Assembly: GCA_012719455.1 (NCBI GenBank)
Contig: JAAYAJ010000023.1
Span: 33,045 to 97,044, forward strand
Direction of reading: 5' to 3'
From: Acidobacteriota bacterium
Lineage (GTDB): Bacteria > Acidobacteriota > UBA6911
DNA length: 64,000 nt
Shown: positions 15,783 through 63,183 of the stretch, piece after piece
How the letters are laid out: each line of letters starts with the position of its first letter
Position numbering within the stretch: position 1 is the first letter of the stretch
The notes under the pieces: generated by a model
Told to the model about the DNA's origin: nothing
Seen by the model: only the letters and a program-made list of their open reading frames with translations
Database searches by the model: none
Made by a program: the position numbers and the translations under genes

Positions 15783-15950
15783 TCTTCGCACTGACTCCTC
15801 CTTATGTACCGTCCGGCGCCGCGAAAGCGCAGGCCCCTCCAGCCTCCGCCGCCACGGCGGGGCGGCCGGAAGAAGGCATTGTCGCACGAGTCAACGTCCC
15901 CTGCAATGGCACCCCATCGGCGGGATCTTGCACCTCGGGGCGGCGCCGTC

Positions 15951-18398: not shown

Positions 18399-18794
18399 GT
18401 CGTCCTCCCCTTTATCCCAGCCTTTATTATAGCAGCGGGCGGGGGGAAAAGGCGGCAGGGATATTGCGCCATCGGCCGCCGCGGCGGCGGGTTCCTTCCG
18501 CGGCGCCTTCCGGTTTACCGTCCCCGCTTGCCGCGATCGGCGGATCCTCCTGATGCGGCAAGCATTGCGTGGTGCCGCAGGGGAGGGGTAAAAACGGCTT
18601 TCACCCGTACACCTGCGACCGGGATGAGAGAGTTTCCCCCGCCCATGGCGCACTTTTGGTATCTTTTTGGACCCAAAGGATGGTACACAAAAAAGAACGA
18701 TCGATAACGGGGTGTGATCGATCCACGACAAACCGGGTGAAGCCTCGAAAGCAGCGCAGGGCGACACAGGATTTGCAGAAAAGGAGATCCCGAC

Positions 18795-21387: not shown

Positions 21388-23304
21388 CTACCTTGAAGTT
21401 CCGGCCAGGCCAATCTCTTCGGCGGATTTCCGCAGGACCGCACCCGCCGGAACCTTGACGACAGCACCGAATTTTGCAGGGCATGCCTTTAAGCAGGCGC
21501 CGCACTTGATGCACTTCTCATGGACGATGGTGAAAACACCCGCCTCCGACTTGTCGATGGCGTCCACCGGGCAGTTGCGCTGGCAGGCGCCGCAGGCCTG
21601 GCATTTCTCCTGGTCGATCTCGTAGGCGATGAGCGCCGTGCAAATGCCGGCGCGGCATCGTCCATGCCGGATGTGCTCCTCGTATTCCTCCCGGAAATAC
21701 TTCAGGGTGCTGGCCACCGGATTGGGCGCCGACTGGCCCAGCGCACAGAGAGATGCGACCTGCATGAATTCGGCCAGCTCCTCGAGGATTTCGAGATCCC
21801 CCTCCCGACCTTTCCCCGCGGCGATGTTGTCGAGGATGGCTAGCATCTGGCGAATCCCTTCGCGGCAGGGAACGCACTTGCCGCAGGACTCGTGTGCGAG
21901 GAAGCTGGTGTAGTACCGCGCGGTATCCACCATGCAGGTGTTTTCGTCCATGACGATCATGCCGCCCGACCCCATCATGGAACCCGCCTTGGTGAGTTCG
22001 TCAAAATCGACCGGAAGATCGAGGAGGGCCGCAGGAATGACACCGCCGGAAGGTCCACCGGTCTGCACGGCCTTGAACGATTTCCCGTCGGGAACCCCTC
22101 CGCCGATCTTGAAAATGATGTCGCGGAGCGGGATTCCCATCGAAACTTCCACCAGCCCCGTGTTTTTGACCTTGCCTACCAGGGAAAAGATCTTGGTGCC
22201 CTTGCTCCCTTCCGTCCCCATCCCACGGAACCAGTCGGCGCCCTTGTCGATGATATGGGGAACGGTGGCCCAAGTCTCGACGTTGTTCAGGCAGGAGGGT
22301 TTGCCCCAGAGCCCTTTCTCCGATGTGTGCACGTATTTGGGGCGCGGTTCACCGACACGCCCTTCGATGGCGCTCATCAGGGCGCTGGATTCCCCGGAAA
22401 CGAAGGCCCCGGCCCCGCGATGAATGACGACGTCGAAGGAGAATCCGGATCCGAGGATGTTCCTGCCGAGCAGCCCGTATTCGCGCGCCTGCTCAATGGC
22501 GATCTCGATGCTCTTGCGCGCCAGGGGATACTCCTGGCGCACGTAGATGAACCCTTCCGCGGCTCCAATCGCATAGGCGCCCAGGATCAGCCCTTCCAGG
22601 ACGCTGTGCGGGTTTCCCTGGAGCAGGCTGCCGTCCATGAAGGCGCCCGGATCCCCCTCATCAGCGTTGACAATGACATATTTCGGTTCGCCGGGAGCGT
22701 TGCGCGTGGTTTCCCACTTCCGGCCGGCGGGAAATCCGCCGCCGCCGCGGCCGCGCAGGTTGGCCTTTTTCACTTCGTGGAGCACCGATTCGGGCGTCAT
22801 TTCGGAAAGAGCCTTCGCCAGCGCGCCGTATCCGCCGACGGCGATGTAGTCCAGGATGCTGGAGGAGTCGATCCTGACGTTGTCCCCGAGCAGGACGCGC
22901 TCCTGGTGCCTGTAGAAGGGGATGTCCTGCAAGCGCTCGATGCGCTCGCCGGTTCCTTCATCGAGGTACAGGAGGTCGCGGACCGGACCTTCACCCGCGC
23001 CGAGCCCGTCGATGATGGGCGCCGCGTGCTTCGGCTGCACTTTGGTATAGCAGGTGTCGGAGGGGTGGATCACCACCAACGGGGCGCCTTCGCAGAAACC
23101 GTGGCACCCGGTCCGGCGGACGCCGACTTTGTGCCCGAGACCGCGCTTTTCGATCTCGCCATCCAATGCGTCCGCCACCGCCTCGGCGCCGCAGGCAAGA
23201 CAACCCGATCCCGTACACACCTCCAGCCAGTCCTTGGCGTTGCGCTGGGCGACGGCCTCCGCTCTCAATTTTTCAAGATCCGCGACGGTCTTCAAGCGTT
23301 TCAT
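21388..23304 (-). CDS. NuoF/HoxF-like NAD(H)-binding FMN flavoprotein subunit with N-terminal thioredoxin-like 2Fe-2S and C-terminal 2x[4Fe-4S] domains
   Basis: 638 aa. The FMN/NADH site carries the GRGGGGFPAGRKWE and ESCGKCVPCREG motifs. The C-terminal CxxCxxCxxxCP is present twice. Confidence 0.85.
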   Translation of the reverse strand: MKRLKTVADLEKLRAEAVAQRNAKDWLEVCTGSGCLACGAEAVADALDGEIEKRGLGHKVGVRRTGCHGFCEGAPLVVIHPSDTCYTKVQPKHAAPIIDGLGAGEGPVRDLLYLDEGTGERIERLQDIPFYRHQERVLLGDNVRIDSSSILDYIAVGGYGALAKALSEMTPESVLHEVKKANLRGRGGGGFPAGRKWETTRNAPGEPKYVIVNADEGDPGAFMDGSLLQGNPHSVLEGLILGAYAIGAAEGFIYVRQEYPLARKSIEIAIEQAREYGLLGRNILGSGFSFDVVIHRGAGAFVSGESSALMSAIEGRVGEPRPKYVHTSEKGLWGKPSCLNNVETWATVPHIIDKGADWFRGMGTEGSKGTKIFSLVGKVKNTGLVEVSMGIPLRDIIFKIGGGVPDGKSFKAVQTGGPSGGVIPAALLDLPVDFDELTKAGSMMGSGGMIVMDENTCMVDTARYYTSFLAHESCGKCVPCREGIRQMLAILDNIAAGKGREGDLEILEELAEFMQVASLCALGQSAPNPVASTLKYFREEYEEHIRHGRCRAGICTALIAYEIDQEKCQACGACQRNCPVDAIDKSEAGVFTIVHEKCIKCGACLKACPAKFGAVVKVPAGAVLRKSAEEIGLAGTSR

Positions 23305-26317: not shown

Positions 26318-28273
26318 TCAACGGGACTTGCGGGGGCCGTAATGCGGGACGGGGGCGCCCCGTTCGTAGGCCCCCAAATCGGGCAACCGGCCGTGGTAGC
26401 CGTCATTGACATTCGGCAGGATGATCCCGGCATCGACCGCTTTCGAGCCGGCACGCAGGCGGAAGTCCAAATCCCTCGCATCATGCAGCCTGCCGGGATC
26501 TTCCGTCGTCAGGGCCGGAACATTTTCAAAAATGTCGTAGTCCAGCAGTACGCTGTGTACATCGTGCCCGGTAGCTGCGCTGTATTCCGCCAGGGTCCGA
26601 AAACGCCGCTCGACGCGCTTTCCGGTGAAATCCGCCGCCTTCCCGAAATCGGGCGATTTCCAGATGAAGGACACCTCCGCGCCGGGGTTCGGGCGGAAAC
26701 CGTTGTAATCCGAACTGGAATAATTCGTCGCGGTATCCACGCTGAACACCTCCTGCGCGGCGCCCTGTCCCAGGATCAGGTTGTTGCGATAGTGCAGGTT
26801 GGAGGCCTGGTCCATGGAAAGCACTTCGGAGGTAAAGGTGTTGTGGTAGACAAGGATGCCCGTGCTGTTGGCGGTGAACTTGACCGATCCCCCTTCCGGC
26901 GCGTGGTACACGATGTTGCGGATGAAATAGACCGGGCCCCCGAGAACGGGTTGCGTGCTCAGCGAACGATGCGCCTGGTTGAAGCAGCGGTTACGCAGGA
27001 CCCGGATGTTGTGCATGACGCCGTCGGCCTCGATGCAGTTGTCATCCACGTTGGTGATGTCGTTATTGTAGATATCGATGGATACCGGCATCCGTTCGCG
27101 GATCGGGTCGGGGTTGCCGTCCGGCTCGCCGTACGTCGCGTGATCGATGCCGTCGTGGAAGTTCGCAACATAGTTGTAGGCGATTACGTGTCCGGAACCG
27201 TAGACCTTCACAGCCAGTTCCGAAAGGACCGGCGTAGGATAGCCGGGAGTGCCCTGCCACACCCGCCCGATCCAGCCCTCCAGCCTTTCGGGATGACTCT
27301 TGCCGATAAACGTGTTGTCGGCGATGTAGAAATCTTTCGAGCCCGACCAGTCCGTATAGATCCCTCGCCCGATATTTTCCAGGCGGCAATTCTTGACACT
27401 CAACCCCACGGCTCCCGCCACTCCCTTGTGGCCGGCCTGGAAGGCCACTTCGGTGTTGCGGATGGTCAGGCCCTCGAAATAAAGGTAATCGGCTCCCATT
27501 ACGTCAAAAAGAACATGGTTGCCGGCTCCGTCAAAGATCGCCTCGCCGTCGCCGGCCGCCACGATGGCGATCGGTTTCTCCGCCGTTCCACTCTGGCGAA
27601 AGCGGTAGGTGCCGTCAAACAGCAGGCCCAGCTGGTTCGCGTAACGATAGCGGTCTTCCCGGTAAAGACCGGCATGAACCAGAATCGTATCTCCGGGTTT
27701 CACCCGGGGCGGGTAGGCGTTAAACCAGTCCGCGCCGTTTGCCTGGGTATAAAACGCGGCCAGAAGCCCCGTGAACGAAGGCTCCTGCTTTTTCCCTTTA
27801 AACCCCGGGGGGTACACGTGGAAAACGCGTCCCCCGGCATAGGGGCGAGGTTCGGCGCGGGTGCGGACCACGAATTGCCGGCGCGCGGTGTTTTCGACGC
27901 CGTCGGGGTCAGTCATTTGGAGGAGGACCTCGTACTCCGTATCTTCCTGCAGGTCCATGATGCTGCCGGCGAACATGTTCGGCGTTACGTAATCGTAGGC
28001 GCCGTAAGTGTTGATCATTTGTTCCCGCTGCAGGCGCAGAAGCGGCAAGCCGTCACGCCACCGGTCCTCTCCCACCTTCCGGTACTGTACCGCAACGCCG
28101 GCATTGCGGTTGGCGTCGCCGTCAATGCGCCACTCAAAGCCCAGCGATATCAGCGTGGGGGGCCCGACGATGAATTCGCCCGCCCGTGTTTTGTTTTCTT
28201 CCGCCGGCAACGCAACGGCCGATAGAAACAGCGGCACCATCAAGGAGAACAGCAGTCGCAGGATTGTCTTCAC
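26318..28273 (-). CDS. secreted right-handed parallel beta-helix repeat protein (pectin-lyase-fold; possible polysaccharide lyase/hydrolase)
   Basis: GTG start with a GGGAG RBS. Signal peptide VKTILRLLFSLMVPLFLSAVALPA. Repeated short beta-helix-like segments and NxxxN-type repeats (IYNNDITNVDDNCIEADG, IRNIVYHAPEGG). Confidence 0.55.
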   Translation of the reverse strand: MKTILRLLFSLMVPLFLSAVALPAEENKTRAGEFIVGPPTLISLGFEWRIDGDANRNAGVAVQYRKVGEDRWRDGLPLLRLQREQMINTYGAYDYVTPNMFAGSIMDLQEDTEYEVLLQMTDPDGVENTARRQFVVRTRAEPRPYAGGRVFHVYPPGFKGKKQEPSFTGLLAAFYTQANGADWFNAYPPRVKPGDTILVHAGLYREDRYRYANQLGLLFDGTYRFRQSGTAEKPIAIVAAGDGEAIFDGAGNHVLFDVMGADYLYFEGLTIRNTEVAFQAGHKGVAGAVGLSVKNCRLENIGRGIYTDWSGSKDFYIADNTFIGKSHPERLEGWIGRVWQGTPGYPTPVLSELAVKVYGSGHVIAYNYVANFHDGIDHATYGEPDGNPDPIRERMPVSIDIYNNDITNVDDNCIEADGVMHNIRVLRNRCFNQAHRSLSTQPVLGGPVYFIRNIVYHAPEGGSVKFTANSTGILVYHNTFTSEVLSMDQASNLHYRNNLILGQGAAQEVFSVDTATNYSSSDYNGFRPNPGAEVSFIWKSPDFGKAADFTGKRVERRFRTLAEYSAATGHDVHSVLLDYDIFENVPALTTEDPGRLHDARDLDFRLRAGSKAVDAGIILPNVNDGYHGRLPDLGAYERGAPVPHYGPRKSR

Positions 28274-28311
28274 GATTTGGCTCCCGTTTCCTGGACCTTC
28301 TGAATTCCAGC

Positions 28312-29271
28312 CTACTTCCCGGGTTTCCTGGGGTGTCGATTGAAGAACTCGAACACATCGGGCATGGAACCCGCGATGATGCTTCCATGGTCCAGGCCCG
28401 GCAACTCCTTCCACTGGACGTCGAAGCCGGCGGCTTTGAGCTGTTCGGCCGTGGTTCGCCCCATGGCGCCCAGCTTATCCTCGCTGCCGGCGGTAAAATA
28501 GAGCGGGGTGTCTTTCAACTTCCCCTTGGGATCGGGTGAGCCGAAGCCGGCGATACAGGCAACGGCCGCCCAGACCGGTGCATATTTTTCGCCGAGATAC
28601 AGCGCCCCGGCGCCTCCCATCGAGTGGCCCATCAGGAAGATGCGGTCGTCGTCGATGTCGAATTCCTTGCGGACCAGATCCAGGACTCTCATGGTGTCGA
28701 TTTCGCTGAGTTCCGAGACCCTGGCCGGGTCGGTCTCCCTGGTTCCGCCGATGGCCGGCCCCTGCATGACGGGCATTACCTTCGGAGGAGCGGCGCGCGC
28801 AGGCCCGGGAGCCGATGGGGCGTCCTTGCGTCCAGCGAACATGTTGGTGTTGCCGAACGGGGCGGTGGGGCTGTACCCCATCACGCCAACGAGGATGTAG
28901 CCGTTCTTTTCCGCCTCCTCCACGCAACCGGAACGCATGAAGGTGCCGTAGTTTCCAAGGTATCCATGCAGCGCCAGGACCAGGGGGGCCTTCTGGCCCT
29001 TGGCGATTTTCGAGGAGACAAACACCGCGTACGGCATGTTTTCTCCGGTTTCCTTGAAGCCGTATTCGCGGATTTCCACGCGATCATCGACCGGGTCGTG
29101 GCCGGCGCGCCGGGCCTGTCCCGCGGCCTTGCCCACGGGGGGGCTGGTCACCCTGGACACCCCGGGGGGGAGCGGCTGGTTTGCCGGAACCGCTGCGTTC
29201 TGTGCATAGGCCATGATCACCAGGCACATGGAGGCTGCCGCATACAACAACATCCTGCTTGTTTTTGACAT
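28312..29271 (-). CDS. secreted alpha/beta-hydrolase esterase (phospholipase/carboxylesterase or PHB-depolymerase-like)
   Basis: Signal peptide MSKTSRMLLYAAASMCLVIMAYA. Oxyanion/His region LALHGY and the GHSMGG nucleophile elbow. Confidence 0.7.
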   Translation of the reverse strand: MSKTSRMLLYAAASMCLVIMAYAQNAAVPANQPLPPGVSRVTSPPVGKAAGQARRAGHDPVDDRVEIREYGFKETGENMPYAVFVSSKIAKGQKAPLVLALHGYLGNYGTFMRSGCVEEAEKNGYILVGVMGYSPTAPFGNTNMFAGRKDAPSAPGPARAAPPKVMPVMQGPAIGGTRETDPARVSELSEIDTMRVLDLVRKEFDIDDDRIFLMGHSMGGAGALYLGEKYAPVWAAVACIAGFGSPDPKGKLKDTPLYFTAGSEDKLGAMGRTTAEQLKAAGFDVQWKELPGLDHGSIIAGSMPDVFEFFNRHPRKPGK

Positions 29272-32113: not shown

Positions 32114-32570
32114 GGCTCCCTCGTTTCTGAAAGGTTTAGGATGTAACGCCAACCTAGCCAACTATTCACCGATTTGTCAAGGTTTTCGTCACACAAAGGA
32201 ATCCGCAGGGCCGCCTGGCCCGCCGGGCCCACGGGGGAGCTCGGAGTCCTGCCGCCGACCCCCGGGGCATCTTCCCGAAGGGCGGGGACATCCCTGAGCC
32301 TTCATGCTTTGATCCCGACACGGAAACATCGTTTGGGCATTTCCATCCCGCGGCGCAAGCATGAAGGAAAACCATGCAACGAATGCTTTAGAATACCCCA
32401 TATCCATGCTAGGTTGGCCTTGTACAAATTCCGTTTTCCAAAACCTCTTTTCCGGAAGGGGAAACAGGGCGAATCGAGTCACCCGACGGCCGAGACCTGG
32501 TGGCCGGGCCCACCGCGCCGTGGACCTGCCGACAGGCGGAACTATCCAAGCTAGAAAAGGGAACCTCCCC

Positions 32571-33395
32571 ATGAATCTCAGAAACGCCGCACGGATCGCC
32601 ATCATGGCGGGGGCCGTCGTGCCACTGGCCGGCTGCACCGTGCAAAATCACTTTCTCTACTACCCGGGCCGGCGCCTGCCGACGACGGGGGAACTGGGGG
32701 TGCTGAACCTCCGGTTCTGGCCTTCCGGACCCGCGGCCTATCGCGGTTTCATCGGCGCGGCCACGATTGCGGCCGCGCAGGGCACCGTCATCGTTTTCCA
32801 CGGCAACGCGGGCACCGCCGCCGACCGGGCCTACTACGCCGATGCGTTGGCCCCGCTCGGCTACCGCGTCATCCTGGCCGAGTATCCCGGTTACGGCAGG
32901 CGTGATGGAAGGCTGGGCGAAGCGCCGTTCATCAGCGATGCCAAGGAGACCCTCCGGCTGGTGTCCGGGCAATACGGAAGCCCGATCTTCCTGCTCGGAG
33001 AATCCCTGGGCTGCGGAGTGGCGGCGCGACTGGCCGGGGACAACTCCCTCCGGATCGACGGCGTACTCCTGGTCACGCCGTGGGACACGCTCCGGGCCGT
33101 GGCCGGACACCATTTTCCGTGGGCGCCGCTCCGGCTCCTGCTGAGAGACCGGTACGACAGCGTCGGGCACCTGAAAGCCTACCCGGGCAGGGTCGGCATC
33201 GTCGGCGCTGAAAAGGACGAGGTGATTCCGGTCAGGCACGCGACGGCGCTCTACGAGTCCCGCGCCGGCGACAAACGGATGTTGATCATTCCCGGCGCCG
33301 GACACAACGACTGGATGGAACGGGTCGGCCCGGGCCATTGGCGGGAGTGGATGGATTATGTCCATGGAGCGCAGGCCGACCACGGGGGCTCGTAG
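32571..33395 (+). CDS. alpha/beta-hydrolase lipoprotein
   Basis: Lipobox PLAGC. GESLG nucleophile elbow. Catalytic His near the C-terminus (GAGHND). Confidence 0.65.
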   Translation: MNLRNAARIAIMAGAVVPLAGCTVQNHFLYYPGRRLPTTGELGVLNLRFWPSGPAAYRGFIGAATIAAAQGTVIVFHGNAGTAADRAYYADALAPLGYRVILAEYPGYGRRDGRLGEAPFISDAKETLRLVSGQYGSPIFLLGESLGCGVAARLAGDNSLRIDGVLLVTPWDTLRAVAGHHFPWAPLRLLLRDRYDSVGHLKAYPGRVGIVGAEKDEVIPVRHATALYESRAGDKRMLIIPGAGHNDWMERVGPGHWREWMDYVHGAQADHGGS

Positions 33396-33497
33396 ACCGC
33401 CGCCATGGAAACCCCCACGCCTCGAGGTACGCCCGGGAATCGTCGGCTGCCCGGATCCTGCGGCGGCGCGCTCGGGTCCCAGCCCATCCGTTCGCCG

Positions 33498-34118
33498 CTA
33501 CTTTTCCGGGGTGTCGAGCTTACAGGCGGGGGACAGAATGGCGGCCAATGCCCTGGAATTCGCCTTCAGGTCCCAGTTTCGGGGATCGGCGACAAGCCTG
33601 AGCGCGCAGCCCTCGATGAAGCTGGCGGCGATGTCCGCAAGGGATTCCCCGGTCACCCCGGGAAACCGTGCCGGTTGCTCGGCCACGACGGCCTGCGCCA
33701 GCGGCAGGTAGGAATCACGATGCCGCTTCAGTGCCTCCCGAATGCGATTGCGGATGACATCGTCGCGCGTACCCATAAACCAGAAATCGAAGAAGAGCTC
33801 GATGCGCGTCCGATCGTGTTGCAGGCGATCAAGGGCGCCCTGGACCTCGGCGGACAGGCGCGAGTAGGCGCTTTCCGGCGCAGCGCCGCTCTCCCCGCCG
33901 CGCCGCAGGATCGTCTTCGCGAGCAGCCATTCCAACAGCGCCAGCAGGAGTTCTCTCCGGCTGCGGAAATAAAAAAACACCAGGCCGTTGCTGACGCCGG
34001 CCTTCGCCGCCACGGCCCGAGTGGACAGGCCGGACAGGCGCTGCGCGAGTGCGACTTGGCAGGCGGCCTCCAGGATCTGCTCCCTCCGCCGGTCCTCGGA
34101 AACCCTTTTCCCAGACAT
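33498..34118 (-). CDS. TetR/AcrR-family transcriptional repressor
   Basis: N-terminal HTH RQRLSGLSTRAVAAKAGVSNGLVFFYF. Divergent from the RND operon. Confidence 0.8.
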   Translation of the reverse strand: MSGKRVSEDRRREQILEAACQVALAQRLSGLSTRAVAAKAGVSNGLVFFYFRSRRELLLALLEWLLAKTILRRGGESGAAPESAYSRLSAEVQGALDRLQHDRTRIELFFDFWFMGTRDDVIRNRIREALKRHRDSYLPLAQAVVAEQPARFPGVTGESLADIAASFIEGCALRLVADPRNWDLKANSRALAAILSPACKLDTPEK

Positions 34119-34169
34119 ATTCCCTCCATTGGTCGCATGCTCAACGATATGCTATCCTGCTTTTCCTGC

Positions 34170-34185
34170 TTGAGCAATTGCTCAA
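34170..34185. promoter_or_regulatory. candidate TetR operator: perfect 16-bp palindrome TTGAGCAATTGCTCAA
   Basis: Lies in the 86-bp divergent intergenic region between the TetR gene and the adaptor gene. A partial copy, TGCTCAACGATATGC, lies just upstream. Confidence 0.45.
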
Positions 34186-34204
34186 TATATAAGAGGAGGC
34201 GGTC

Positions 34205-35404
34205 ATGCTCTTCCCGAATCGAAGCGTTTTGGCGATAGCGGCCCTCGCGCTCATTCTCGCGGCCTGCGGGCAGGGGAGGGAGCCGGATATCGGAATGGCC
34301 CCGCCCATCCCGGTCCGGGTAAGGAAGCCGGACGTCGTCCAGCGGCCCGTACTCGTGGCGGCCAGCGGAACGGTGGAGGCGGCCAGGACGGCCGACATCG
34401 GGTTCCAGGTTCCGGGACTGGTCACACAGGTGTGGGTCGAGGAGGGGCAGGCTGTCCGCAAGGGGCAGGTTCTCGCCCAAATCGACGCCACCGACTATGG
34501 GTTCGGCCTGCAGGCGTCGGAAGGACAGGCGGCCGTCGCACAGGCGAATCTTGACAAGGCGCAGGCGGGCACGCGCGCCGAGGAGATGGAGCAGGCGCGC
34601 GCCGCGTACGAAAAGGCCGAGGACGAATACCACCGCTACCGGCAACTCTACGAGCGGAAAAGCATGGCGCCCGTGGATTTTTCAAAAGTCGAGGCGCTAT
34701 ACCGCGCGGCCAAGGCGCAATATGAAATGGCTAAAAACGGCGCGCGCCCGGAGGATCGGGATGCGGCCGGAGCCTCCGTCAGCCAGGCCCTGGCCCAGGT
34801 GGCCGCCAGCCGCAAGCGCGTCGCCGACACGCGCCTCGTATCGCCCATTGACGGGATTTTGGCGCGGCGCGCCATCGATCCGGGCGAAAATGTGAGCGCG
34901 GGCCTGCCGGTCTTCAGCATCGTCGATCTCAGAACGGTGCACGTGCGCGTCGGAATCCCGGAAGCGGACATCGGGCGGATCCACACGGGGCAGCACGCGC
35001 GGATAACGGTCCCGGCGCTGGATGGGAGAGAGTTCCCGGGCAGGGTCGAACTGGTGGGAGTCGCCGCCGACCCAAACTCGCGTACGTTTACAGCAAAAAT
35101 CTCCGTCCCGAACCCGGATCTCCGGCTGAAGGCGGGCATGATTGCCGAAGCCAGCATCGAGGGGAGCGGCAAGATCCACGCATTCGTTCTCCCTGGGGAA
35201 GCCGTCGTCCACGATCCCCAGGGCGCCAGTCTCGTCTACGTCTATTATCCCGACCACAAACGCGTGCATGCGCGCCGGGTCGAGGCCGGCGCCGTCCGGG
35301 ATAGGGGCGTGGAAATCAGCACGGGCCTTTCCGGCGACGAACTCGTCGTCGTGGCGGGCCAGCACCAGGTGCGCGAGGGTTCCCTGGTCGAGGTGATGCA
35401 ATGA
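34205..35404 (+). CDS. RND efflux periplasmic adaptor (membrane fusion protein, HlyD family) lipoprotein
   Basis: Lipobox ILAACG. Typical coiled-coil and beta-barrel adaptor regions. Overlaps the permease start by 4 nt. Confidence 0.8.
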   Translation: MLFPNRSVLAIAALALILAACGQGREPDIGMAPPIPVRVRKPDVVQRPVLVAASGTVEAARTADIGFQVPGLVTQVWVEEGQAVRKGQVLAQIDATDYGFGLQASEGQAAVAQANLDKAQAGTRAEEMEQARAAYEKAEDEYHRYRQLYERKSMAPVDFSKVEALYRAAKAQYEMAKNGARPEDRDAAGASVSQALAQVAASRKRVADTRLVSPIDGILARRAIDPGENVSAGLPVFSIVDLRTVHVRVGIPEADIGRIHTGQHARITVPALDGREFPGRVELVGVAADPNSRTFTAKISVPNPDLRLKAGMIAEASIEGSGKIHAFVLPGEAVVHDPQGASLVYVYYPDHKRVHARRVEAGAVRDRGVEISTGLSGDELVVVAGQHQVREGSLVEVMQ

Positions 35405-38400
35405 ATCCCGTGCGCAGCTCCTTGCGGCACCCCAATGTAACGCTCATGCTGACGGCGGCGCTCGTCCTTGCCGGCGTCTATGCCCTCGCGAAAATGCCGC
35501 GGCGCGAGGATCCGCAGATCACCATACGCGCCGGGCTGGTGTCGGCCCAGTATCCCGGCGCCACGGCGGAGCAGGTGGAAAAGCAGGTCACCGCCAAGAT
35601 CGAGGAGCGGCTGTTCCGCTACGCCGAAGTGCGCAAGGACCGGACCTATTCCACCAGCCGTCCGAACGTGGTCATTATCAACGTGGAGCTGGAGGACTGG
35701 GTAACGGACCCGGACACCTTCTGGTCCAACCTCCGCCACGACATGAATCAGCTCCGCGCCACGGATCTCCCGCAGTCCGTCCGCGGACCCGTCGTGGACT
35801 CGGACTTCGGCGACACCGTCGCCGCACTGATCGCGGTCCGCGGCACCCGCTACGGGTATCGCGAGCTGAAGGAATACGCGCAGCGCATCGAGGAAGGATT
35901 ACGGACTCTCCGGCCCGTGGCCAAGATCCGACGCATCGGCGAGCAGCCGGAGGAAGTTCGGATCACCAGTTCGCTGCAACGTCTTTCGCAATACGCCCTC
36001 AATCCCGCGAAAGTCGCCGCCGCACTGCAGGGGCGCAACACCGTCGAGTATGCCGGCAGCCTGGATTCCCCCTCCGCGGAAGTTCAAATGAATCCCAACG
36101 GACCGTTCCAGACCGAGGACCAGATCCGGCGCGTGATCGTCGACCTGTCTCCCACGAGCGGCCAGCCCGTGCACATCGGGGATGTGGCCGACGTGCGCCG
36201 CGGATACAAGGACCTGGAATTTGCCACGCGCTTCATGGGAGAGCCGGCGTTGATGCTGGCGGTCGAAATGCAGGAAGGCAACAATATCGTTGAATTCGGG
36301 GACGCCCTGCGCGCCGAACTGGAGAAGGTAAAAAAGACTTTGCCTCCCGACATCCGCATCGATTTCGTGGCCGACCAGCCGCGCATGGTGAAGGAACGCA
36401 TCTCCCATTTTATCCGGGAATTCGGGGTTGCCATCACCGCCGTCATTCTCGTGACCATGCTGCTTTTGCCTTTCCACGTGGCGCTGATCGCGGCATTGGC
36501 GATCCCCATCACGGTTGCCGTCACCTTCGGCGCCATGAACGTTTTCGGCGTCGAATTGCACCAGGTTTCGATCTCGGCCCTCATCGTCGTCCTGGGAATG
36601 GTGGTCGACGACGCCATCGTGGTCGCGGACAACTACGTCGAGTTGCTCGACCACGGGGCGCCCGTGCCGGAAGCGGCATGGCGCAGCGCATCCGAAATGG
36701 CGGTGCCGGTGTTCACGGCGACCCTCACGATCGTCGCTTCTTTCCTCCCCCTGCTGATGCTTTCGGGGGCCGTCGGGGAATTCATCAGCGCCCTGCCGCT
36801 GACCGTGGCCATCGCTCTGCTCGTCTCTTTCGCCGTCGCGATGCTGGTGACGCCGCTGTTGTCGCGCTTCTTCATCAAGAAGGGGCTCCGGGAAGAAGTC
36901 CCCAACGGACTGCGGGCGCGCTTGAGCCCGCTCACCCTGATGCGGCGACGCTACATGCGCGCCATCGGCTTTTCGATGAAGCACAAGCCCCTTGTCCTCG
37001 CCGGCGCCCTGCTCGCGTTTCTCGCCGGCGTCGCGATGTTGCATTTTGTCCCGCGCCAGTTTTTTCCATCGGCGGAACGAAACCAGTTCGTCGTCGACCT
37101 GTTCGCCCCGGAAGGCACCCGAATCGAACTTACAGACGAGCTGGCGCGCCGCATCGAGAAGCACCTGGCGCAGCAAACGCCGGTGCGCGATTATTCCACG
37201 TTCGTGGGAGGCAGCGCCCCCCGGTTTTATTACAACGTGAGCCCTCAGCCGCCCGCTTCCAACTATGCCCAGTTCCTGGTGAACACGGAATCGGTGCGGG
37301 ATACGCCCCCGCTGACCTATCGCCTGCGGGAACAGCTCACGCGGCTCGTCCCCGAGGCCCTCGTGATCGTGCGCCAGCTCGACCAGGGACATGTCATCGA
37401 GGCGCCCGTGGAGGTGCGCATTTCGGGAGGCGACATCGCCAGGTTGAAGGAAATCGGCGATGGCGTGCAGCGGGTGCTGCAGGAAACGCCCGGCGCAGTG
37501 TATGTGCATACCGACTACCGCCAGGACCTGTGGCAGATGCGCATCGACGTGAAGGAGGAATCCGCCAACCGCATGGGACTCAGCAACAGTTCCATTGCGC
37601 AACAGCTGGCGGCAAGCTTCCACGGCCTTCCCGTGACGACGTTCTGGGAAGGGGATCGCGCGGTGGACGTGGTCCTGCGAGTGGAAGAGGATCGCCGGAA
37701 ATCCTTCGCCGATGTTGAGAACGCCTACGTCACGTCCTATCTCACGGGGGCACGGGTTCCGCTGCGCTCCGTCGCCTCGTTCCATCCCGAGTGGCAGAGC
37801 GGCCGCATCGTCCGGCGCAACGGCGTCCGGACGATAACGGTGCGCTGCTTTCCCGACGAGCACCGTCTCGCCTCGCAGATTCTGGCGTCGGCGGCAGGGA
37901 AGCTGGATGGCATGAATCTGCCGCAAGGGTACGCGATCGCCTTCGGGGGCGAGGCCGAAAGGCAGGCGGAGACATTCGCGGAATTGGTCCACGTATTGAT
38001 CGTCAGCATCGCGGCCATATTCCTGATCCTGCTGTTTCAGTTCCGCTCCGTCTCGGAGTCGCTGGTCGTGATGGCGGCTATCCCGCTGGCGTTTCCGGGC
38101 GCCGTCGCGGGATTGCTTCTGATGGGCAACCCGTTCGGATTTACGGCATTCATGGGCATCGTGAGCCTGGGAGGCATAGTCGTGCGCAACTCCATCATCC
38201 TGGTCGATTACATCAAAGAACGCCTGCGCGAGGGAGTCGGTCTCGAGCAGGCGGCCATGGAGGCAGGGGAGCGAAGGCTGCGGCCGATCTTCCTGACAAC
38301 GATGGCCGCGGCCGTGGGCGTGACCCCGATGATATTCTCGGGGTCCTCTCTGTGGTCGCCCCTCGCCAGCACCATCGCCGTCGGCTTGATCGTGTCCATG

Positions 38401-39801
38401 TTCTTTACGCTGATCGTCGTCCCCGTGCTTTTTACCCTCACCAAAAGGCGCAGGGCTTCCGCCCCGTCGTCCGCCGCCTTCGTTGCAGTCCTGTTGGCCG
38501 TTTTCCTCCTTACCCCTCCCGCCGCCCGTGCCGGGCAGCGGCGCATTTCGCTGGACGAGGCCGTCGACCTGGCCGTGAGCAACAACAGCGTGGTAAGGCT
38601 CTCTTCGCTGCGGATCCAAGAGGCCGAAGCCAGGCGGGACCAGGCGAGGTCCAATTATTTCCCGCAGGTGTCGAACGAGTCCAGCCTGTACAACATCATC
38701 GAAAAGCAGAGGCTCGTTCTTCCCGCCGGTTCGCTGGGATCCGGTTCCCCGATCGGGGAAATCCCCGCCGTACCAACGACCATTTATCAGGGCGGACGCT
38801 CTCTGCTGCTCTCCCAAACCACGGTCGCCCAGCCGCTGACACAGCTGTTCAAAATACGGGCGGGAAACGCGGTGGCCCGAACGGACAGCGCCATCGCAAA
38901 AACACATCTCGAGCGGGCCCGGGTGGAAGTCGCCGCGAAAACCAAGGAGTTGTATTACACGCTGCTGGGACTGGAGGCACGGCAGAAGGCTGCGCAAGCC
39001 GCGGTCGCAGCCGCGCAGGCGCGGCTCGAAGAGAGCCGCGATGCCGCCGAGACGGGAACCGCCCTGGCGGTGCAGGCCATGCGGGCGCAATCGGCCCTTC
39101 TGGAACGCCGACAGGCCGTCATGACGCTGGATATGCAGGTCGAGGATGCGCTGTTGGAACTTAACGAATTGATCGGGCTGCCGCTCGACACGGAACTTGT
39201 CCTGGCCCCGGCGGAAACCAGGCCCGCCATTCCGTCGCTCGAGGATTCCCTTAGCGAAGCCGCGTCACGAAGCCCGGAACTGGAAGCTGCGAGGCTGACG
39301 GTCGAAAAGGCGCGCCATGCCTTTGCCGCCGCGAGGTCCGACCGCATTCCCGAAATCGGGCTGTTTGCCCAACATATCTACCAGGACGGGGTCCCTTTTC
39401 TCGCGTCCAATAACGGCGTCGTCGGTTTCAGGCTGAACTACGACCTCTTCGATTGGGGCAAGCGCAAGGGAGCCATCCAGGAAAGGGCGTCGCAGCTCGC
39501 GCAGGCGGAAGAAGAGATGCGCCGCGTGGAACGACGAATCCGGATCGACGTCGAAAAGGCCTACCGGCGCGTTCAGCGCGTCGCGGGCGTGGCCGAGGTG
39601 GCGCGCGAAGCCTTGAACGTCACCAGGGAAACCCTGCGCATCGCCAAAGACCAGTATGAACTGGGACTCGGCAGCCGGGCGCTTTATGAAGAGGCGAACG
39701 CCGCGGCGGCCGCCGCGGACGCCGACCTCGTCGCCGCGGACTGTCAAATAGCGGCGGCGCTGGCGGACCTGGACCGGCTGCGCGGAGACAGGAGCAATTA
39801 G
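35401..39801 (+). CDS. RND efflux permease (AcrB/HAE1-like, about 1020 aa) fused in frame to a TolC-like outer membrane factor (about 445 aa)
   Basis: Continuous 1466-aa ORF. The N-terminal 12-TM RND fold is followed by ...TKRRRASAPSSAAFVAVLLAVFLLTPPAARA, a signal-peptide-like segment. An OMF domain with two coiled-coil repeats follows. There is no stop codon at the junction. Confidence 0.75.
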   Translation: MNPVRSSLRHPNVTLMLTAALVLAGVYALAKMPRREDPQITIRAGLVSAQYPGATAEQVEKQVTAKIEERLFRYAEVRKDRTYSTSRPNVVIINVELEDWVTDPDTFWSNLRHDMNQLRATDLPQSVRGPVVDSDFGDTVAALIAVRGTRYGYRELKEYAQRIEEGLRTLRPVAKIRRIGEQPEEVRITSSLQRLSQYALNPAKVAAALQGRNTVEYAGSLDSPSAEVQMNPNGPFQTEDQIRRVIVDLSPTSGQPVHIGDVADVRRGYKDLEFATRFMGEPALMLAVEMQEGNNIVEFGDALRAELEKVKKTLPPDIRIDFVADQPRMVKERISHFIREFGVAITAVILVTMLLLPFHVALIAALAIPITVAVTFGAMNVFGVELHQVSISALIVVLGMVVDDAIVVADNYVELLDHGAPVPEAAWRSASEMAVPVFTATLTIVASFLPLLMLSGAVGEFISALPLTVAIALLVSFAVAMLVTPLLSRFFIKKGLREEVPNGLRARLSPLTLMRRRYMRAIGFSMKHKPLVLAGALLAFLAGVAMLHFVPRQFFPSAERNQFVVDLFAPEGTRIELTDELARRIEKHLAQQTPVRDYSTFVGGSAPRFYYNVSPQPPASNYAQFLVNTESVRDTPPLTYRLREQLTRLVPEALVIVRQLDQGHVIEAPVEVRISGGDIARLKEIGDGVQRVLQETPGAVYVHTDYRQDLWQMRIDVKEESANRMGLSNSSIAQQLAASFHGLPVTTFWEGDRAVDVVLRVEEDRRKSFADVENAYVTSYLTGARVPLRSVASFHPEWQSGRIVRRNGVRTITVRCFPDEHRLASQILASAAGKLDGMNLPQGYAIAFGGEAERQAETFAELVHVLIVSIAAIFLILLFQFRSVSESLVVMAAIPLAFPGAVAGLLLMGNPFGFTAFMGIVSLGGIVVRNSIILVDYIKERLREGVGLEQAAMEAGERRLRPIFLTTMAAAVGVTPMIFSGSSLWSPLASTIAVGLIVSMFFTLIVVPVLFTLTKRRRASAPSSAAFVAVLLAVFLLTPPAARAGQRRISLDEAVDLAVSNNSVVRLSSLRIQEAEARRDQARSNYFPQVSNESSLYNIIEKQRLVLPAGSLGSGSPIGEIPAVPTTIYQGGRSLLLSQTTVAQPLTQLFKIRAGNAVARTDSAIAKTHLERARVEVAAKTKELYYTLLGLEARQKAAQAAVAAAQARLEESRDAAETGTALAVQAMRAQSALLERRQAVMTLDMQVEDALLELNELIGLPLDTELVLAPAETRPAIPSLEDSLSEAASRSPELEAARLTVEKARHAFAAARSDRIPEIGLFAQHIYQDGVPFLASNNGVVGFRLNYDLFDWGKRKGAIQERASQLAQAEEEMRRVERRIRIDVEKAYRRVQRVAGVAEVAREALNVTRETLRIAKDQYELGLGSRALYEEANAAAAAADADLVAADCQIAAALADLDRLRGDRSN

Positions 39802-39809
39802 CGCCAAAG

Positions 39810-39846
39810 AAACCGCGGCGGCCCGCGGAGCCGCCGCGGTTTTATC
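39810..39846. terminator. bidirectional intrinsic terminator between convergent genes
   Basis: aaaccgcggcggc-ccgcggag-gccgccgcggtttt: a 13-bp GC-rich stem with T/A tracts on both sides, 9 nt after the stop at 39801. Confidence 0.55.
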
Positions 39847-39852
39847 TCCCGT

Positions 39853-40833
39853 TCACCGTGCCGGAAAGTTTTTCCGTTCGATGGTCCACCTCTCATCCGT
39901 GCACAAGCCGCACTGATCGCCCACGAAACGGGCGGCGGCCTTTGCATCACCGCGCAATTGCCAGTTCAGCCAGTCCACCGCCACCTGCGCGGCGGCACCG
40001 CCGTTTGGTTCGTGGTAGGTGCCTCCATGGCCTACCGGCAGGTTTGCCACCGCCACGGGAACATGGTCGATCAGCCGGAAGTCCTCCATGCCATTCTCAT
40101 AGGCAACGTCGGTCGACCCGCCCAGTATGTAGAGAACGGGCGTGTGATAGTTCTTCACCGTCGACTTGGGCACCTTGAAGCCGGGCATGCTGGCCCGTTC
40201 ACCGTCATAGGTGCCCGTGTTCTGCATGATCAGGGTCTTCACACGCGGATCCCCGGCGACCAGAGCCGCTTGCAGGCCTCCACAACTGAAGCCCGATACG
40301 GCCACCTGCCGCGGATCGATGCGCCCGAAATACGGGCTGCCCTGACGGCTGTTCTCGGCCAGCGCCCAGTCGATGGCCCTGGTGAGATCCGATGGTTCGG
40401 TGCGCGGAAAGGGCTTCGGCTCTGCGGCGGGCGGATGGGCTCCCGGCCCGCTGAGGATGCGACCGGACGCAAGCACCAGGTAACCGTGCGACGCCAGCTC
40501 AAGCAGATGGAAGCGGGTGCTGGCGGCATCATCCGAACAGCCGCCGTTTCCCCACGCAACCACGCCCAGTTTCTGCGAACCCATCGCCGCCAGGTTGGCC
40601 GGTCGATACACCACATGCCTTGGGAGCTCGGGAATCTCCTCCTTCATCGCCGGGTAGGCGCCGGTGCCCGGGGTGTCCGGAATGTTGTTCTGTCCAAATC
40701 CCGGCGGACCCATCGCCGCCCGATTGGGCCCACCGGCGCGGGACGCGGGCGGCTGCTGGGCGGCGGCCGCCCGCGCGCCGACCAGGGCGCCGGCCATTAC
40801 CATGACGCATATCAAACCTTTTGCGGTACGCAT
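39853..40833 (-). CDS. secreted alpha/beta-hydrolase (dienelactone-hydrolase/esterase-like)
   Basis: Signal peptide MRTAKGLICVMVMAGALVGARAAAA. Nucleophile elbow GFSCGG. Confidence 0.6.
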   Translation of the reverse strand: MRTAKGLICVMVMAGALVGARAAAAQQPPASRAGGPNRAAMGPPGFGQNNIPDTPGTGAYPAMKEEIPELPRHVVYRPANLAAMGSQKLGVVAWGNGGCSDDAASTRFHLLELASHGYLVLASGRILSGPGAHPPAAEPKPFPRTEPSDLTRAIDWALAENSRQGSPYFGRIDPRQVAVSGFSCGGLQAALVAGDPRVKTLIMQNTGTYDGERASMPGFKVPKSTVKNYHTPVLYILGGSTDVAYENGMEDFRLIDHVPVAVANLPVGHGGTYHEPNGGAAAQVAVDWLNWQLRGDAKAAARFVGDQCGLCTDERWTIERKNFPAR

Positions 40834-40915: not shown

Positions 40916-42511
40916 TTACCGCTCTCCTCCGTTCATCCCGGCCTGTTCCCTGCGCCATTGATAGTACGCATCATAAGCCTTCAGTTTTTCCAGGTTCGGG
41001 ATCGGCTTTGCGACGGCGGTATCGTCGAAATACAGAACCTTCTGGTCATCCTCGGTAAAGTTGGGCCATTCCGGCAGGCCGGGTCCGTTCGGGTCCCCCT
41101 TGTCGGCAAAATTGATCCAGTAAGACTGAATCATTTCGGAAAGAGCCAGGTCTTCCGGTCGAGGTTCGCCAGTCCGCCCTCCGAAATTTCCAAACACATA
41201 GGGGATCTCGTCCGCATGATTGGCGCCTTCGGGGGACGCCGGCGTCCGATGGTCATAATAGTAGACAAACGCTTTGCCCTTCCCCATCCGGGATTGAAGC
41301 CGGGCCCAGGCCCAAGTGGGCCAGGAAAAGGCGAATTCGCGGAAAACATCGGCCGAGGCACGGGCGGCTTCGGCGTCGGTCGCATGGGGATAGGCTTCCA
41401 GAATGACATCAGCCCGTTCTCCATACCCGGACCGGATCTGTTGTTCAAACTGATCAGGGGTGACGGAACCCCTCATGAACAATCCGCCTTCGTTGGAATT
41501 GGTGCCCACCAGGATCGGAGTGTCGTTGAACCGTCCCTTCTCATACTGTTCGTAAGGATCTCCCGGGATTACATATCCATCGGCCACCGGCCAAAAAGCG
41601 GCGCCGCCGCCCATTCCTCCTCCGGCGGCCTGCTGGATCTGTTCAGCCGGCAGAGCCCGCGCGGCCTTGATGTTGTCGACACCGAGTTTATTCAGGAAGC
41701 TCGCTCCATCCGATTCCGCCAGCGCCAGTGAGGGGACATTCATTCCCGCTCCCGCTACGACCCGCGGCGGAGCAAACGAGCCGCCGCTTTCGGAAATTGC
41801 GCGCTGGAACAGCCCTTGGGCGGGCGGCGCTGCGGCCAGCATGCCGACCGCGATTCCTCCTGCGGATTCGCCGAAAATCGTTACCCGCGACGGGTCGCCT
41901 CCGAACCGGCCGATATTGTCCCTTACCCACTGGAGCCCGGCGATCATATCCTGAAGTCCATAGGTTCCGGATCCGCGGCCGCTTTCACCGCTGAGCTCCG
42001 GGTGGGCCATAAATCCGAAGACGCCGAGCCGATAGGCAATACTTACAAGCACAACCCCTTTTTGGGCGAATTTGGTTCCGTCGAACATCGGCGTACCCGT
42101 CATTCCACCGACGAATGCGCCGCCGTGAATCCAGACCATCACCGGCCGCTTTTCATCGGCCTTCTTGGCTCCGGTCCAGATGTTCAGGTACAGGCAGTCC
42201 TCACTGAAATTGGCGGAAGTGCCCGTCATCGCAGCCATGCTTGCATCCTGCATGCACCCGCAAGCATATGCATCCGCACTCTTTACACCCGTCCAGGCCT
42301 CCGCCGGCTGCGGAGATTTCCAGCGCAGGTCGCCGACCGGAGGCGCCGCAAAGGGAATTCCTTTGTACACCAAAACACCGTCCTGTTCGACGCCTTCGAT
42401 AGTTCCTCCGGCCACCTCAACGGTTGTTTTCAGGGGCGGCGAACCGCATGCGCCGGCAAATAAAACAACAACCATCATTACAAAAAAACACCCTAAACGT
42501 TTTGACAGCAT
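40916..42511 (-). CDS. carboxylesterase type B (COesterase family) lipoprotein
   Basis: Lipobox LFAGACG. Type-B carboxylesterase signatures include the GESAGG nucleophile elbow. Confidence 0.8.
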   Translation of the reverse strand: MLSKRLGCFFVMMVVVLFAGACGSPPLKTTVEVAGGTIEGVEQDGVLVYKGIPFAAPPVGDLRWKSPQPAEAWTGVKSADAYACGCMQDASMAAMTGTSANFSEDCLYLNIWTGAKKADEKRPVMVWIHGGAFVGGMTGTPMFDGTKFAQKGVVLVSIAYRLGVFGFMAHPELSGESGRGSGTYGLQDMIAGLQWVRDNIGRFGGDPSRVTIFGESAGGIAVGMLAAAPPAQGLFQRAISESGGSFAPPRVVAGAGMNVPSLALAESDGASFLNKLGVDNIKAARALPAEQIQQAAGGGMGGGAAFWPVADGYVIPGDPYEQYEKGRFNDTPILVGTNSNEGGLFMRGSVTPDQFEQQIRSGYGERADVILEAYPHATDAEAARASADVFREFAFSWPTWAWARLQSRMGKGKAFVYYYDHRTPASPEGANHADEIPYVFGNFGGRTGEPRPEDLALSEMIQSYWINFADKGDPNGPGLPEWPNFTEDDQKVLYFDDTAVAKPIPNLEKLKAYDAYYQWRREQAGMNGGER

Positions 42512-61968: not shown

Positions 61969-62145
61969 GGCCCCTCCTTACCATTTCTGATCGGGATCGA
62001 AAGAAACCAAGGCAGTATACAAAAAAACGGGGCCGCGCCGCAGCAAGAATCGCCCGATTTTTGGCGCACCCCGGGCGGGCTTTGAAGTATGATGACCCTG
62101 GGACACACGCCGCGGACAACGGCACGATCGGAACAGGAGGCGCTC

Positions 62146-63141
62146 ATGACCGAAGAGTACAGTCCCGAAAAGCTGCTGCAGATCGCACGCGGGTTCATGG
62201 AAAGCCGGATCCTGCTCTCGGCCGCCGAACTCGACCTGTTCACGCTCCTCGAGGCGGCGCCGCTCTCCGCCGAGGAGATCGCGAACAAAACGGGCGCGGA
62301 CCTGCGCGCCCTGACCGCGCTCGTCGACGCGCTGGCCGCCATGGGCCTCCTTGCAAAAACGGAGGCAGGGTATTCCTGCCCCCCCGGTGTAGCGCACTGG
62401 CTGGGCGGGCACTCCCCCAAAACCATCCTCCCCATGGTGCACCACATGGCGGGCCTCTGGCCGCGCTGGTCGCGCCTCACGGCCATCGTCAAGGGATATC
62501 CCCCGGCCAAGGAAAAGCTCGACTTGACGCGCAACGCCGCGGAACTCCGGGCCTTCATCGGCGCCATGCACTCGATCGGCACGCCCATGGCCGCGCGCAT
62601 CGCGGCCGCCGTCGATGCCGGAACGGCCCGGGCGCTGCTGGACGTGGGAGGCGGCTCGGGCACCTACACGATCGCCTTCCTGCGCGCCGTCCCGGAGATG
62701 CGGGCGACCCTGTTCGACCTGCCCCCCGTAATCGAAATGGCCCGGGAACGCCTCGGGGAGGAAGGGATGCTCGGGCGCACGACCCTGGTGGCCGGCAACT
62801 TTCACCACGATGATTTCCCCGGCGGGCACGACCTGGCCCTGATCTCCGCCATCATTCACTCCAACAGCCCGGAGGAAAACCTGAACCTCTACCGGAGGGT
62901 GTTCCGGGCGCTCAAGGCGGGGGGGCGCATCCTGGTCCGGGACCACGTCATGAGTCCCGACCGGACACGGCCCCGGGATGGTGCGGTGTTCGCCATCAAC
63001 ATGCTGGTGGGGACCTCCGGAGGGGGGACCTACACCTTCGGGGAAATCGAGGCCGACCTCGACAGGGCGGGGTTCACCGGCATCCGCCTCCTGTGCGAGG
63101 GGGACCACATGGACGCCGTCGTCGAGGCGCACCGTCCCTAG
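62146..63141 (+). CDS. class I SAM-dependent O-methyltransferase (with N-terminal dimerisation/winged-helix domain)
   Basis: SAM motif LLDVGGGSGTY. RBS AGGAGG. Confidence 0.7.
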   Translation: MTEEYSPEKLLQIARGFMESRILLSAAELDLFTLLEAAPLSAEEIANKTGADLRALTALVDALAAMGLLAKTEAGYSCPPGVAHWLGGHSPKTILPMVHHMAGLWPRWSRLTAIVKGYPPAKEKLDLTRNAAELRAFIGAMHSIGTPMAARIAAAVDAGTARALLDVGGGSGTYTIAFLRAVPEMRATLFDLPPVIEMARERLGEEGMLGRTTLVAGNFHHDDFPGGHDLALISAIIHSNSPEENLNLYRRVFRALKAGGRILVRDHVMSPDRTRPRDGAVFAINMLVGTSGGGTYTFGEIEADLDRAGFTGIRLLCEGDHMDAVVEAHRP

Positions 63142-63183
63142 CCCCGCAACACCAAAGCCTGAAACGACACTTACGGAGGTTCC

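Follow-up and report, generated by a model that had tools for sequence, protein, structure and literature searches.

A conserved open reading frame joins an RND efflux permease to a TolC-type outer membrane factor through an internal segment with the character of a signal peptide

A 64,000-nt stretch from an Acidobacteriota bacterium (UBA6911 lineage; assembly GCA_012719455.1, contig JAAYAJ010000023.1, positions 33,045 to 97,044 of the forward strand), hereafter the window, has a G+C content of 64.7% and carries an efflux operon in which the RND permease and the TolC-type outer membrane factor (OMF) are encoded by one continuous open reading frame (ORF), joined by a segment that looks like the signal peptide of the OMF. 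We have hardly any doubt that this fusion is genuine and conserved, and its product is probably a two-membrane polyprotein, that is, a precursor that would be cleaved by signal peptidase I after translocation. Tripartite efflux pumps play a central part in intrinsic resistance to drugs and toxins, and there is continuing debate about how a given pump recruits its outer-membrane duct. The frame and its two domains are as follows.

35401 to 39801, forward strand: fused RND permease-OMF ORF, an ATG-to-stop frame of 1466 aa with a precursor of 160.8 kDa
35401 to 38436, forward strand: RND permease domain, residues 1-1012, ending in transmembrane helix 12 (TM12), recognized by ACR_tran, motifs and hydropathy
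38533 to 39798, forward strand: predicted mature OMF, residues 1045-1466, 46.0 kDa, TolC type and non-lipidated, recognized by two OEP repeats, an AlphaFold2 model and Foldseek

The Pfam family ACR_tran (PF00873) matched residues 5-1013 over a profile of 1021 positions (E 1.2e-187), and OEP (PF02321) matched two stretches reaching up to residue 1460, the better of which spans residues 1280-1460 (E 1e-44). Likewise, the RND permease models of NCBIfam matched over their full length and the TolC/NodT models matched the C-terminal part; the RND subfamily models, although full-length, stayed under their equivalog-type cut-offs (549 vs 1250 bits), which indicates a divergent RND subfamily. The nearest solved permeases in a PDB search were MexK (531 bits) and 6vej (465 bits). 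Kyte-Doolittle peaks were observed at the canonical RND positions, with TM2/TM3 and TM5/TM6 merging in this crude profile, and TM12 was placed at about residues 992-1012. In AcrB the proton-relay residues are D407/D408 in TM4, K940 in TM10 and R971 in TM11. Reading the permease sequence directly, rather than from a formal AcrB alignment, we found VVDDAIVV in TM4 (D403/D404), GIVVRNSIIL in TM10 (R929) and RRLRPIF in TM11 (with RLRP). An original prediction, made from the letters of the window alone, had proposed a continuous 1466-aa permease-OMF frame at 35401-39801, and both the uninterrupted ATG-to-stop ORF and its ACR_tran and OEP matches bear this out.

The same prediction held that a complete OMF domain lies downstream, and structural modelling agrees. 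An AlphaFold2 model of residues 1016-1466, built with 25 aligned sequences (pLDDT 85, pTM 0.73), showed two repeats of a beta-hairpin plus long helices, with the signal helix detached and of low confidence. Foldseek aligned this model at full length, over about 430 columns, with TolC, OprM, OprN, CmeC and CusC at TM-scores of 0.70-0.77 (query-normalized score TMq 0.72 for TolC, 1ek9). On this model the downstream domain is a complete TolC-type OMF protomer. The motif that starts the repeat lies 5 residues past the predicted cut, compared with 2 past the real cut in E. coli TolC, which is to be read as a motif equivalence and not as a residue mapping of the N-terminus, the profile searches of PDB sequences with the OMF part having cross-aligned its two OEP repeats.

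To place the fusion among its relatives, the full-length protein was searched against 5.8 billion clustered proteins and the best 120 matches were taken. All 120 are the same fusion, 1440-1542 aa in length and carrying both PF00873 and PF02321; nearly all cover 97-100% of the query, with one at 70%, and their identities run from 100% to 54%. They derive from JGI, ENA, NCBI and Logan, and some are encoded on contigs of 4.7-6.9 Mb. The identical 1466-aa protein (P0001) is present in independent JGI and Logan assemblies, with 18 member sequences and 3 contigs. A junction-centred alignment was also used to scan GTDB with one genome per species, which returned at least 551 relatives; the best 80 loci were analysed, a set that favours full-length junction matches and is no measure of the fused:unfused ratio in the clade.

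In each of these best 80 loci the alignment runs from TM12 through the junction into the OMF, and in 75 the frame stays open for at least 500 codons past the start of the match. Among the other five, three end at contig ends, one (L064) has a frameshift some 210 residues inside the OMF, and one (L068) is about 65 residues shorter. A stop codon at the junction, for which the original prediction had proposed comparing orthologous loci, was found in none of the 80, and the junction indels of the fused relatives are in frame. As to taxonomy, 46 loci are labelled Acidobacteriota (Terriglobia, Bryobacterales, Holophagae), 26 are of Desulfobacterota type (Geobacterales, Syntrophobacteraceae and others), and a few belong to Nitrospirota, Gemmatimonadaceae, Deferribacterales and metagenome-assembled genomes (MAGs) labelled Chloroflexi. 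Fused genes were also found in isolates, including Telmatobacter bradus, Geothrix rubra and Paludibaculum fermentans on the Acidobacteriota side, and Trichlorobacter thiogenes, Oryzomonas japonica and two Geomonas species on the Geobacterales side. The fusion is thus conserved across at least two phyla, as confirmed by isolate genomes, and by these comparisons it is under selection. Separately, frame breaks were seen in a few fused loci, in the OMF (L064, 6836-7618) or in the RND part (L023, L032) and in none at the junction; such breaks may reflect pseudogenes or errors in the sequencing of MAGs.

An assembly or sequencing error, or a fresh loss of a stop codon in a single genome, had been left by the original prediction as the alternative to a genuine fusion. 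Only the prior expectation of separate genes speaks for such an artefact, whose probability we regard as negligible: the identical protein recurs in independent JGI and Logan assemblies, and the fusion is found in 120 clusters and 80 species-level genomes, complete genomes of isolates included, down to about 45-54% identity. A conserved fusion with in-frame junction indels rules out a recent stop loss or assembly error, and of the two alternatives the genuine fusion is the one that stood.

Next, we inspected the junction itself. Between TM12 and the OMF the frame runs as ...VPVLFTLTKRRRASAPSSAAFVAVLLAVFLLTPPAARA / GQRRISLDEAV..., and the signal-peptide-like segment, residues 1015-1044, can be divided as KRRR / AAFVAVLLAVFLL / TPPAARA, with the following parts.

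38443 to 38472, forward strand: n-region KRRRASAPSS, residues 1015-1024, the basic cytoplasmic tail of the permease doubling as a positive n-region
38473 to 38511, forward strand: h-region AAFVAVLLAVFLL, residues 1025-1037, Kyte-Doolittle hydropathy 3.12 over 13 residues
38512 to 38532, forward strand: c-region TPPAARA, residues 1038-1044, with a predicted signal peptidase I cut after A1044, between nucleotides 38532 and 38533

The three-part layout of a Sec/signal peptidase I signal is therefore present as originally described, with its KRRR patch, 13-residue core and AxA site after TM12, but it is internal, following 12 predicted TM helices, and not N-terminal. With an RND C-terminus that is predicted to be cytoplasmic, the segment would have the N-in/C-out orientation that is right for signal peptidase I. 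By a rule-based analysis, a hydrophobic core followed by a small-residue (-3, -1) site was found in 137 of 140 unique junctions, compared with 26.5% of random segments of the same proteins. Alanine occupies position -1 in 83% and position -3 in 73% of the 140 junctions, against a background of 12%; position -2 is bulky and polar, Pro or Gly occurs at -4 to -6, and the residue at +1 across the fused homologues is E, Q, R, A or G, mostly Glu or Gln. Every junction carries a net positive charge in its n-region (median +3), and hydrophobic runs are short, with a median length of 15 residues and a maximum of 20. No Cys was found in the junction, which means that there is no lipobox and that the segment is not a lipoprotein signal of the type that defines the NodT/OprM lipoprotein subfamily.

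Within the protein, sequence variation is also highest at the junction. Homologues share 40% pairwise identity in its core, compared with 81-91% in TM4, TM10, TM11 and TM12, while the hydrophobicity of the core is always kept across the homologues (mean Kyte-Doolittle 2.41, minimum 1.32). Insertions of up to about 100 aa are confined to the N-terminal, cytoplasmic side of the core, and the distance between the AxA site and the conserved RR-I-T-L-D-E-A motif hardly varies. By this pattern of substitution, the hydrophobic core evolves as a signal peptide does, unlike a packed TM helix.

A side observation concerns these n-region insertions, many of which, in fused proteins of the Acidobacteriaceae/Terracidiphilus type, share the sequence FP(R/W)SQ(K/N)RD(L/Q)GHP. 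It occurs in P0038, P0043, P0053, P0067 and P0081, the last with more than one copy, and within the junction n-region at L001 6256, L014 6304, L018 6283 and L034 3512. Its translation is also met at unrelated, partly non-coding sites (L004 2720; L013 12729, reverse strand; L038 8301). Its appearance is that of a short dispersed repeat, inserted in frame into the cytoplasmic linker.

To find unfused counterparts, 1.84 billion representatives were searched by HMMER with the junction plus the OMF part as query. The nearest representatives at 50% identity are mostly stand-alone OMFs of 435-470 aa, and in the closest of these (43-44% identity) the protein's own N-terminal signal peptide aligns onto the internal core. 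Three stand-alone OMFs (P0121, P0125, P0138) sit in operons of the order membrane fusion protein (MFP)-RND-OMF. Two sister operons of this order were compared in detail, one from GCA_054024135.1 (L082) and one from SRR13593807 (L083); in both the RND protein has 1019 aa, is 60-62.5% identical to the RND part in the window and stops 4-9 residues past the basic patch. Their OMFs are 42% identical to that of the window and begin with their own ATG, preceded by Shine-Dalgarno (SD) pairing of -6.0 and -10.8 kcal/mol; their signal peptides finish at the equivalent position, ahead of R(R/D)-(I/L)-T-L-(E/D). The RND and OMF genes are separated by a 12-nt gap in L082 and overlap as ATGA in L083. This layout indicates that the fused junction corresponds to an RND tail plus an OMF signal peptide, minus the punctuation between them, and by these alignments the junction is homologous to real OMF signal peptides. 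The original prediction had named separate genes in orthologues as an observation that would tell against the fusion; such genes do exist in a minority, namely these two operons, and they do not refute it.

A rough neighbour-joining tree of the RND domains, midpoint-rooted and without support values, included only two unfused permeases; both branch within the fused set, being 65-69% identical to P0025 and P0026. Their placement suggests that fusion or fission has occurred repeatedly, with fused and split states interconverting, and unfused sequences nested among fused ones would be expected if both states yield the same mature products. In a different transporter class, a stand-alone OMF relative (P0130) lies in an MFP-MFS-OMF operon (L081, 4508-7353) whose OMF start and MFS end overlap as ATGA, a tight junction that could give rise to a fusion there.

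We then evaluated whether the OMF might be translated from a start of its own. On this account, translation of a normal OMF precursor would begin at an in-frame GTG, ATG or TTG close to where TM12 ends, the long ORF being incidental read-through. The two relevant sites in the window are as follows.

38425 to 38427, forward strand: in-frame GTG (V1009) within TM12, the earlier candidate start, with upstream anti-SD pairing of +0.6 kcal/mol
35390 to 35396, forward strand: SD site GAGGTGA of the fused ORF, -7.2 kcal/mol

The GTG at 38425 is the sole in-frame start-type codon before the hydrophobic core in the window. It is in frame, and a product started there would bear a plausible signal peptide; moreover, one or more in-frame start-type codons precede the core in most loci. 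The original prediction had already judged that this GTG lacks a convincing ribosome-binding site, and the pairing of +0.6 kcal/mol, compared with -7.2 kcal/mol at the ORF start, upholds that judgement. In 62 fused loci we scored anti-SD pairing 5' of each in-frame ATG, GTG or TTG lying between late TM12 and the point where the core begins. The best junction value per locus averaged -3.2 kcal/mol, compared with -3.35 in size-matched internal windows of the same ORFs, and only 2 of the 62 loci fell in the 5% tail. In contrast, the true starts of the fused ORFs at 67 loci averaged -8.9 kcal/mol, with 92.5% at -6 or lower. Strong SD pairing at the true starts, together with background pairing at the junction, indicates that these organisms use SD sites and that the junction has none of its own. 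Two loci (L020, L074) have no in-frame candidate start codon before the core, and no Met is conserved in the junction across the homologues. Initiation within the frame would also leave unexplained why the frame is open across the junction in every locus. We therefore consider internal initiation very unlikely.

A further possibility is that the fusion is never cleaved, so that the junction would be a permanent 13th TM helix and the OMF would stay covalently tethered to the permease. The segment is hydrophobic enough to span the membrane in some homologues, with runs of up to 20 residues. Nevertheless, no part of the protein is less conserved than this helix, and the conserved -3/-1 site and Pro/Gly c-region would be needless for a plain anchor. 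The linker is short as well, a median of 8 residues joining the core to the first conserved residue of a complete TolC fold bound for the outer membrane. In AcrAB-TolC structures the OMF N-terminus is equatorial and its distance from the inner membrane greatly exceeds 30 Angstrom, and outer membrane proteins with uncleavable signal peptides stay attached to the inner membrane and fail to assemble. Release of the OMF would thus be required, because a TolC protomer tethered so near the inner membrane could not reach BAM or its position at the top of the pump. Split operons with ordinary signal peptides are, in addition, interleaved among the fused ones. An uncleaved tether is accordingly improbable in our judgement. 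The original prediction had left a 13th TM helix and periplasmic cleavage side by side; the signal peptidase I features, the homology to OMF signal peptides, the turnover of the core and the short linker favour cleavage and disfavour the permanent helix.

Based on the observed frame, domains, conservation and signal-peptide character, we infer that a cleaved precursor would be made in the following way. The stop codon, SD site and start codon that lie between the two genes in unfused relatives have been lost in the fused ones. Sec/YidC would insert the 12 TM helices co-translationally and leave the KRRR tail in the cytoplasm, after which the core (residues 1025-1037) would enter the translocon N-in/C-out in the manner of a signal peptide, and the OMF chain would be threaded to the periplasm. 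Signal peptidase I would then cut after A-R-A(1044). The released 46.0-kDa OMF would take the usual chaperone/BAM route to the outer membrane and trimerise, and the 114.9-kDa permease would still carry the signal helix at its C-terminus, barring later trimming. Together with the adaptor, the mature parts would form an ordinary tripartite pump, with synthesis forced to 1:1 and each OMF freed beside its own pump. More tentatively, it is conceivable, if rather doubtful, that the signal helix is kept as a 13th helix, that release in cis hard-wires pump-duct pairing as well as 1:1 stoichiometry, and that fusion and fission reflect selection on assembly fidelity and not on transport chemistry.

Several observations weigh against cleavage of a conserved polyprotein. 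By the rule applied, 3 of the 140 unique junctions are without a clear signal peptidase I site. Non-SD or leaderless-type internal initiation is compatible with the sequence. Also counted here are the preference of the 80-locus set for full-length junction matches and an RND tree with only two unfused sequences. The polyprotein reading is weighed with these points included, and we still hold it to be the probable one.

The genes that accompany the fused ORF are consistent with an RND pump. In the window the adaptor gene and the fused permease-OMF gene form a two-gene operon with no separate OMF gene, and the remaining features of this operon are listed below.

34193 to 34199, forward strand: SD site GAGGAGG of the MFP gene, anti-SD duplex -12.0 kcal/mol, 6 nt 5' of the ATG at 34205
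34205 to 35404, forward strand: periplasmic adaptor (MFP) gene, 399 aa, matching Pfam HlyD_D23 and HlyD_3 and NCBIfam TIGR01730 RND_mfp
39813 to 39839, no strand: terminator-like GC-rich hairpin with T-runs on both strands, CCGCGG...CCGCGG then TTTT, 12 nt past the stop codon

The MFP scored 217.7 bits with TIGR01730 RND_mfp, above the cut-off of 94.9, and an ATGA overlap links its stop codon to the start codon of the fused ORF. An MFP homologue was found directly 5' and on the same strand in 69 of the 72 fused loci with a complete 5' end. On the forward strand no promoter-like site was found near the junction, which gives no support to a separate OMF transcript.

The neighbours of the operon in the window, namely hydrolases at 32361-33395, 39853-40833 (reverse) and 40916-42511 (reverse) and an ORF at 33405-34238, showed no conserved linkage in the related loci and are thus taken to lie outside the pump system. 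The alpha/beta-hydrolase and esterase genes around the operon are at 32361-33395 (forward), 39853-40833 (reverse), 40916-42511 (reverse) and 18795-20804 (forward); matches among these four hydrolase-type genes include Hydrolase_4/Abhydrolase_1, weak PETase-like matches, a type-B carboxylesterase (E 2e-112) and a Peptidase_S9-like match, and none of the four is linked to the fused pump in the other genomes. The forward ORF at 33405-34238 (277 aa) overlaps the MFP start by 34 nt, has no Pfam or NCBIfam match and has a homologue in none of the 80 related loci (0/80); it may be a spurious ORF in a genome of 65% G+C. Three further large ORFs, at 15804-18707 (forward), 61978-63954 (reverse) and 26318-28414 (reverse), encode 967, 658 and 698 aa, respectively, with Pfam matches absent or weak, that at 26318-28414 having a marginal Beta_helix match. 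The reverse-strand gene at 21388-23304, unrelated to the pump, encodes a 638-aa NuoF-like protein with Complex1_51K, NADH_4Fe-4S, 2Fe-2S thioredoxin-like and 4Fe-4S dicluster domains, and it looks like a fused flavoprotein subunit of the NADH-dependent hydrogenase or dehydrogenase type.

This family offers a built-in test of obligate 1:1 co-synthesis of pump and duct, and it is a likely natural bacterial substrate for a signal peptidase I that would cut at an internal signal located behind 12 predicted TM helices. It also includes fused and split relatives that are matched and can be compared directly, and a route of assembly in cis, if true, would be absent from the split operons. The finding would be unexpected for specialists in efflux and in protein export and is directly testable, cleavage being the inferred step. 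Databases already hold the fused proteins under generic names, such as the JGI label 'AcrB/outer membrane protein TolC'. Since the current names are 'RND permease' or 'TolC family protein', surveys that count OMFs would miss the OMF here, and the operon could pass as an OMF-less pump.

Compared with the canonical tripartite RND systems (AcrAB-TolC, MexAB-OprM), the operon shares the MFP adaptor, the RND permease (here with a predicted 12-TM layout and a candidate DD pair in TM4), the TolC-fold OMF and an adaptor gene placed directly 5', and the same mature complex would be expected. It differs in that permease and OMF form one ORF by way of the OMF signal peptide, with no OMF start or SD site of its own, and in that the permease here would bear an extra C-terminal hydrophobic helix. 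Compared with AcrB, an Arg in TM10 stands at the Lys940 position, a correspondence taken from sequence reading without a formal alignment. The sister operons L082 and L083 have the same gene order and the same end position of the OMF signal peptide, and differ in that their RND protein stops early and their OMF has its own ATG and SD site.

The closest known parallel is the cytochrome b/c1 polyprotein precursor FbcH of Bradyrhizobium japonicum, which is reportedly processed into two subunits. In both cases a polytopic inner-membrane protein lies upstream of an exported protein and is joined to it by the internal signal peptide of the latter, and in both the parts are separate genes in other bacteria. 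However, both FbcH products are said to reside in one inner-membrane complex, whereas the downstream product here must insert in the outer membrane; likewise, cleavage is reportedly demonstrated for FbcH and is predicted here. In flavivirus structural and eukaryotic membrane polyproteins, signal peptidase acts from the trans side of the membrane on internal signals that follow TM segments, and cuts them there; these differ in relying on the eukaryotic ER signal peptidase and in having no link to efflux pumps. Engineered fusions in the style of AcrA-AcrB or MexA-MexB (e.g. PMC4754349) also link parts of a tripartite pump covalently, but they are artificial, join adaptor to permease, are not meant for cleavage, and none joins permease to OMF. 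In the literature searched, part of a comprehensive review of 2021 included, we met no account of a natural RND-OMF fusion. One candidate precedent (PMC7726332) was set aside, as its 'fused' refers to nikMN. Taken singly, the parts are ordinary: a MexK-like RND, a non-lipidated OMF of TolC type and an MFP. Relative to the described tripartite pumps, the departure lies in a single permease-OMF ORF, joined by way of a retained signal peptide, as the conserved state of a large multi-phylum clade.

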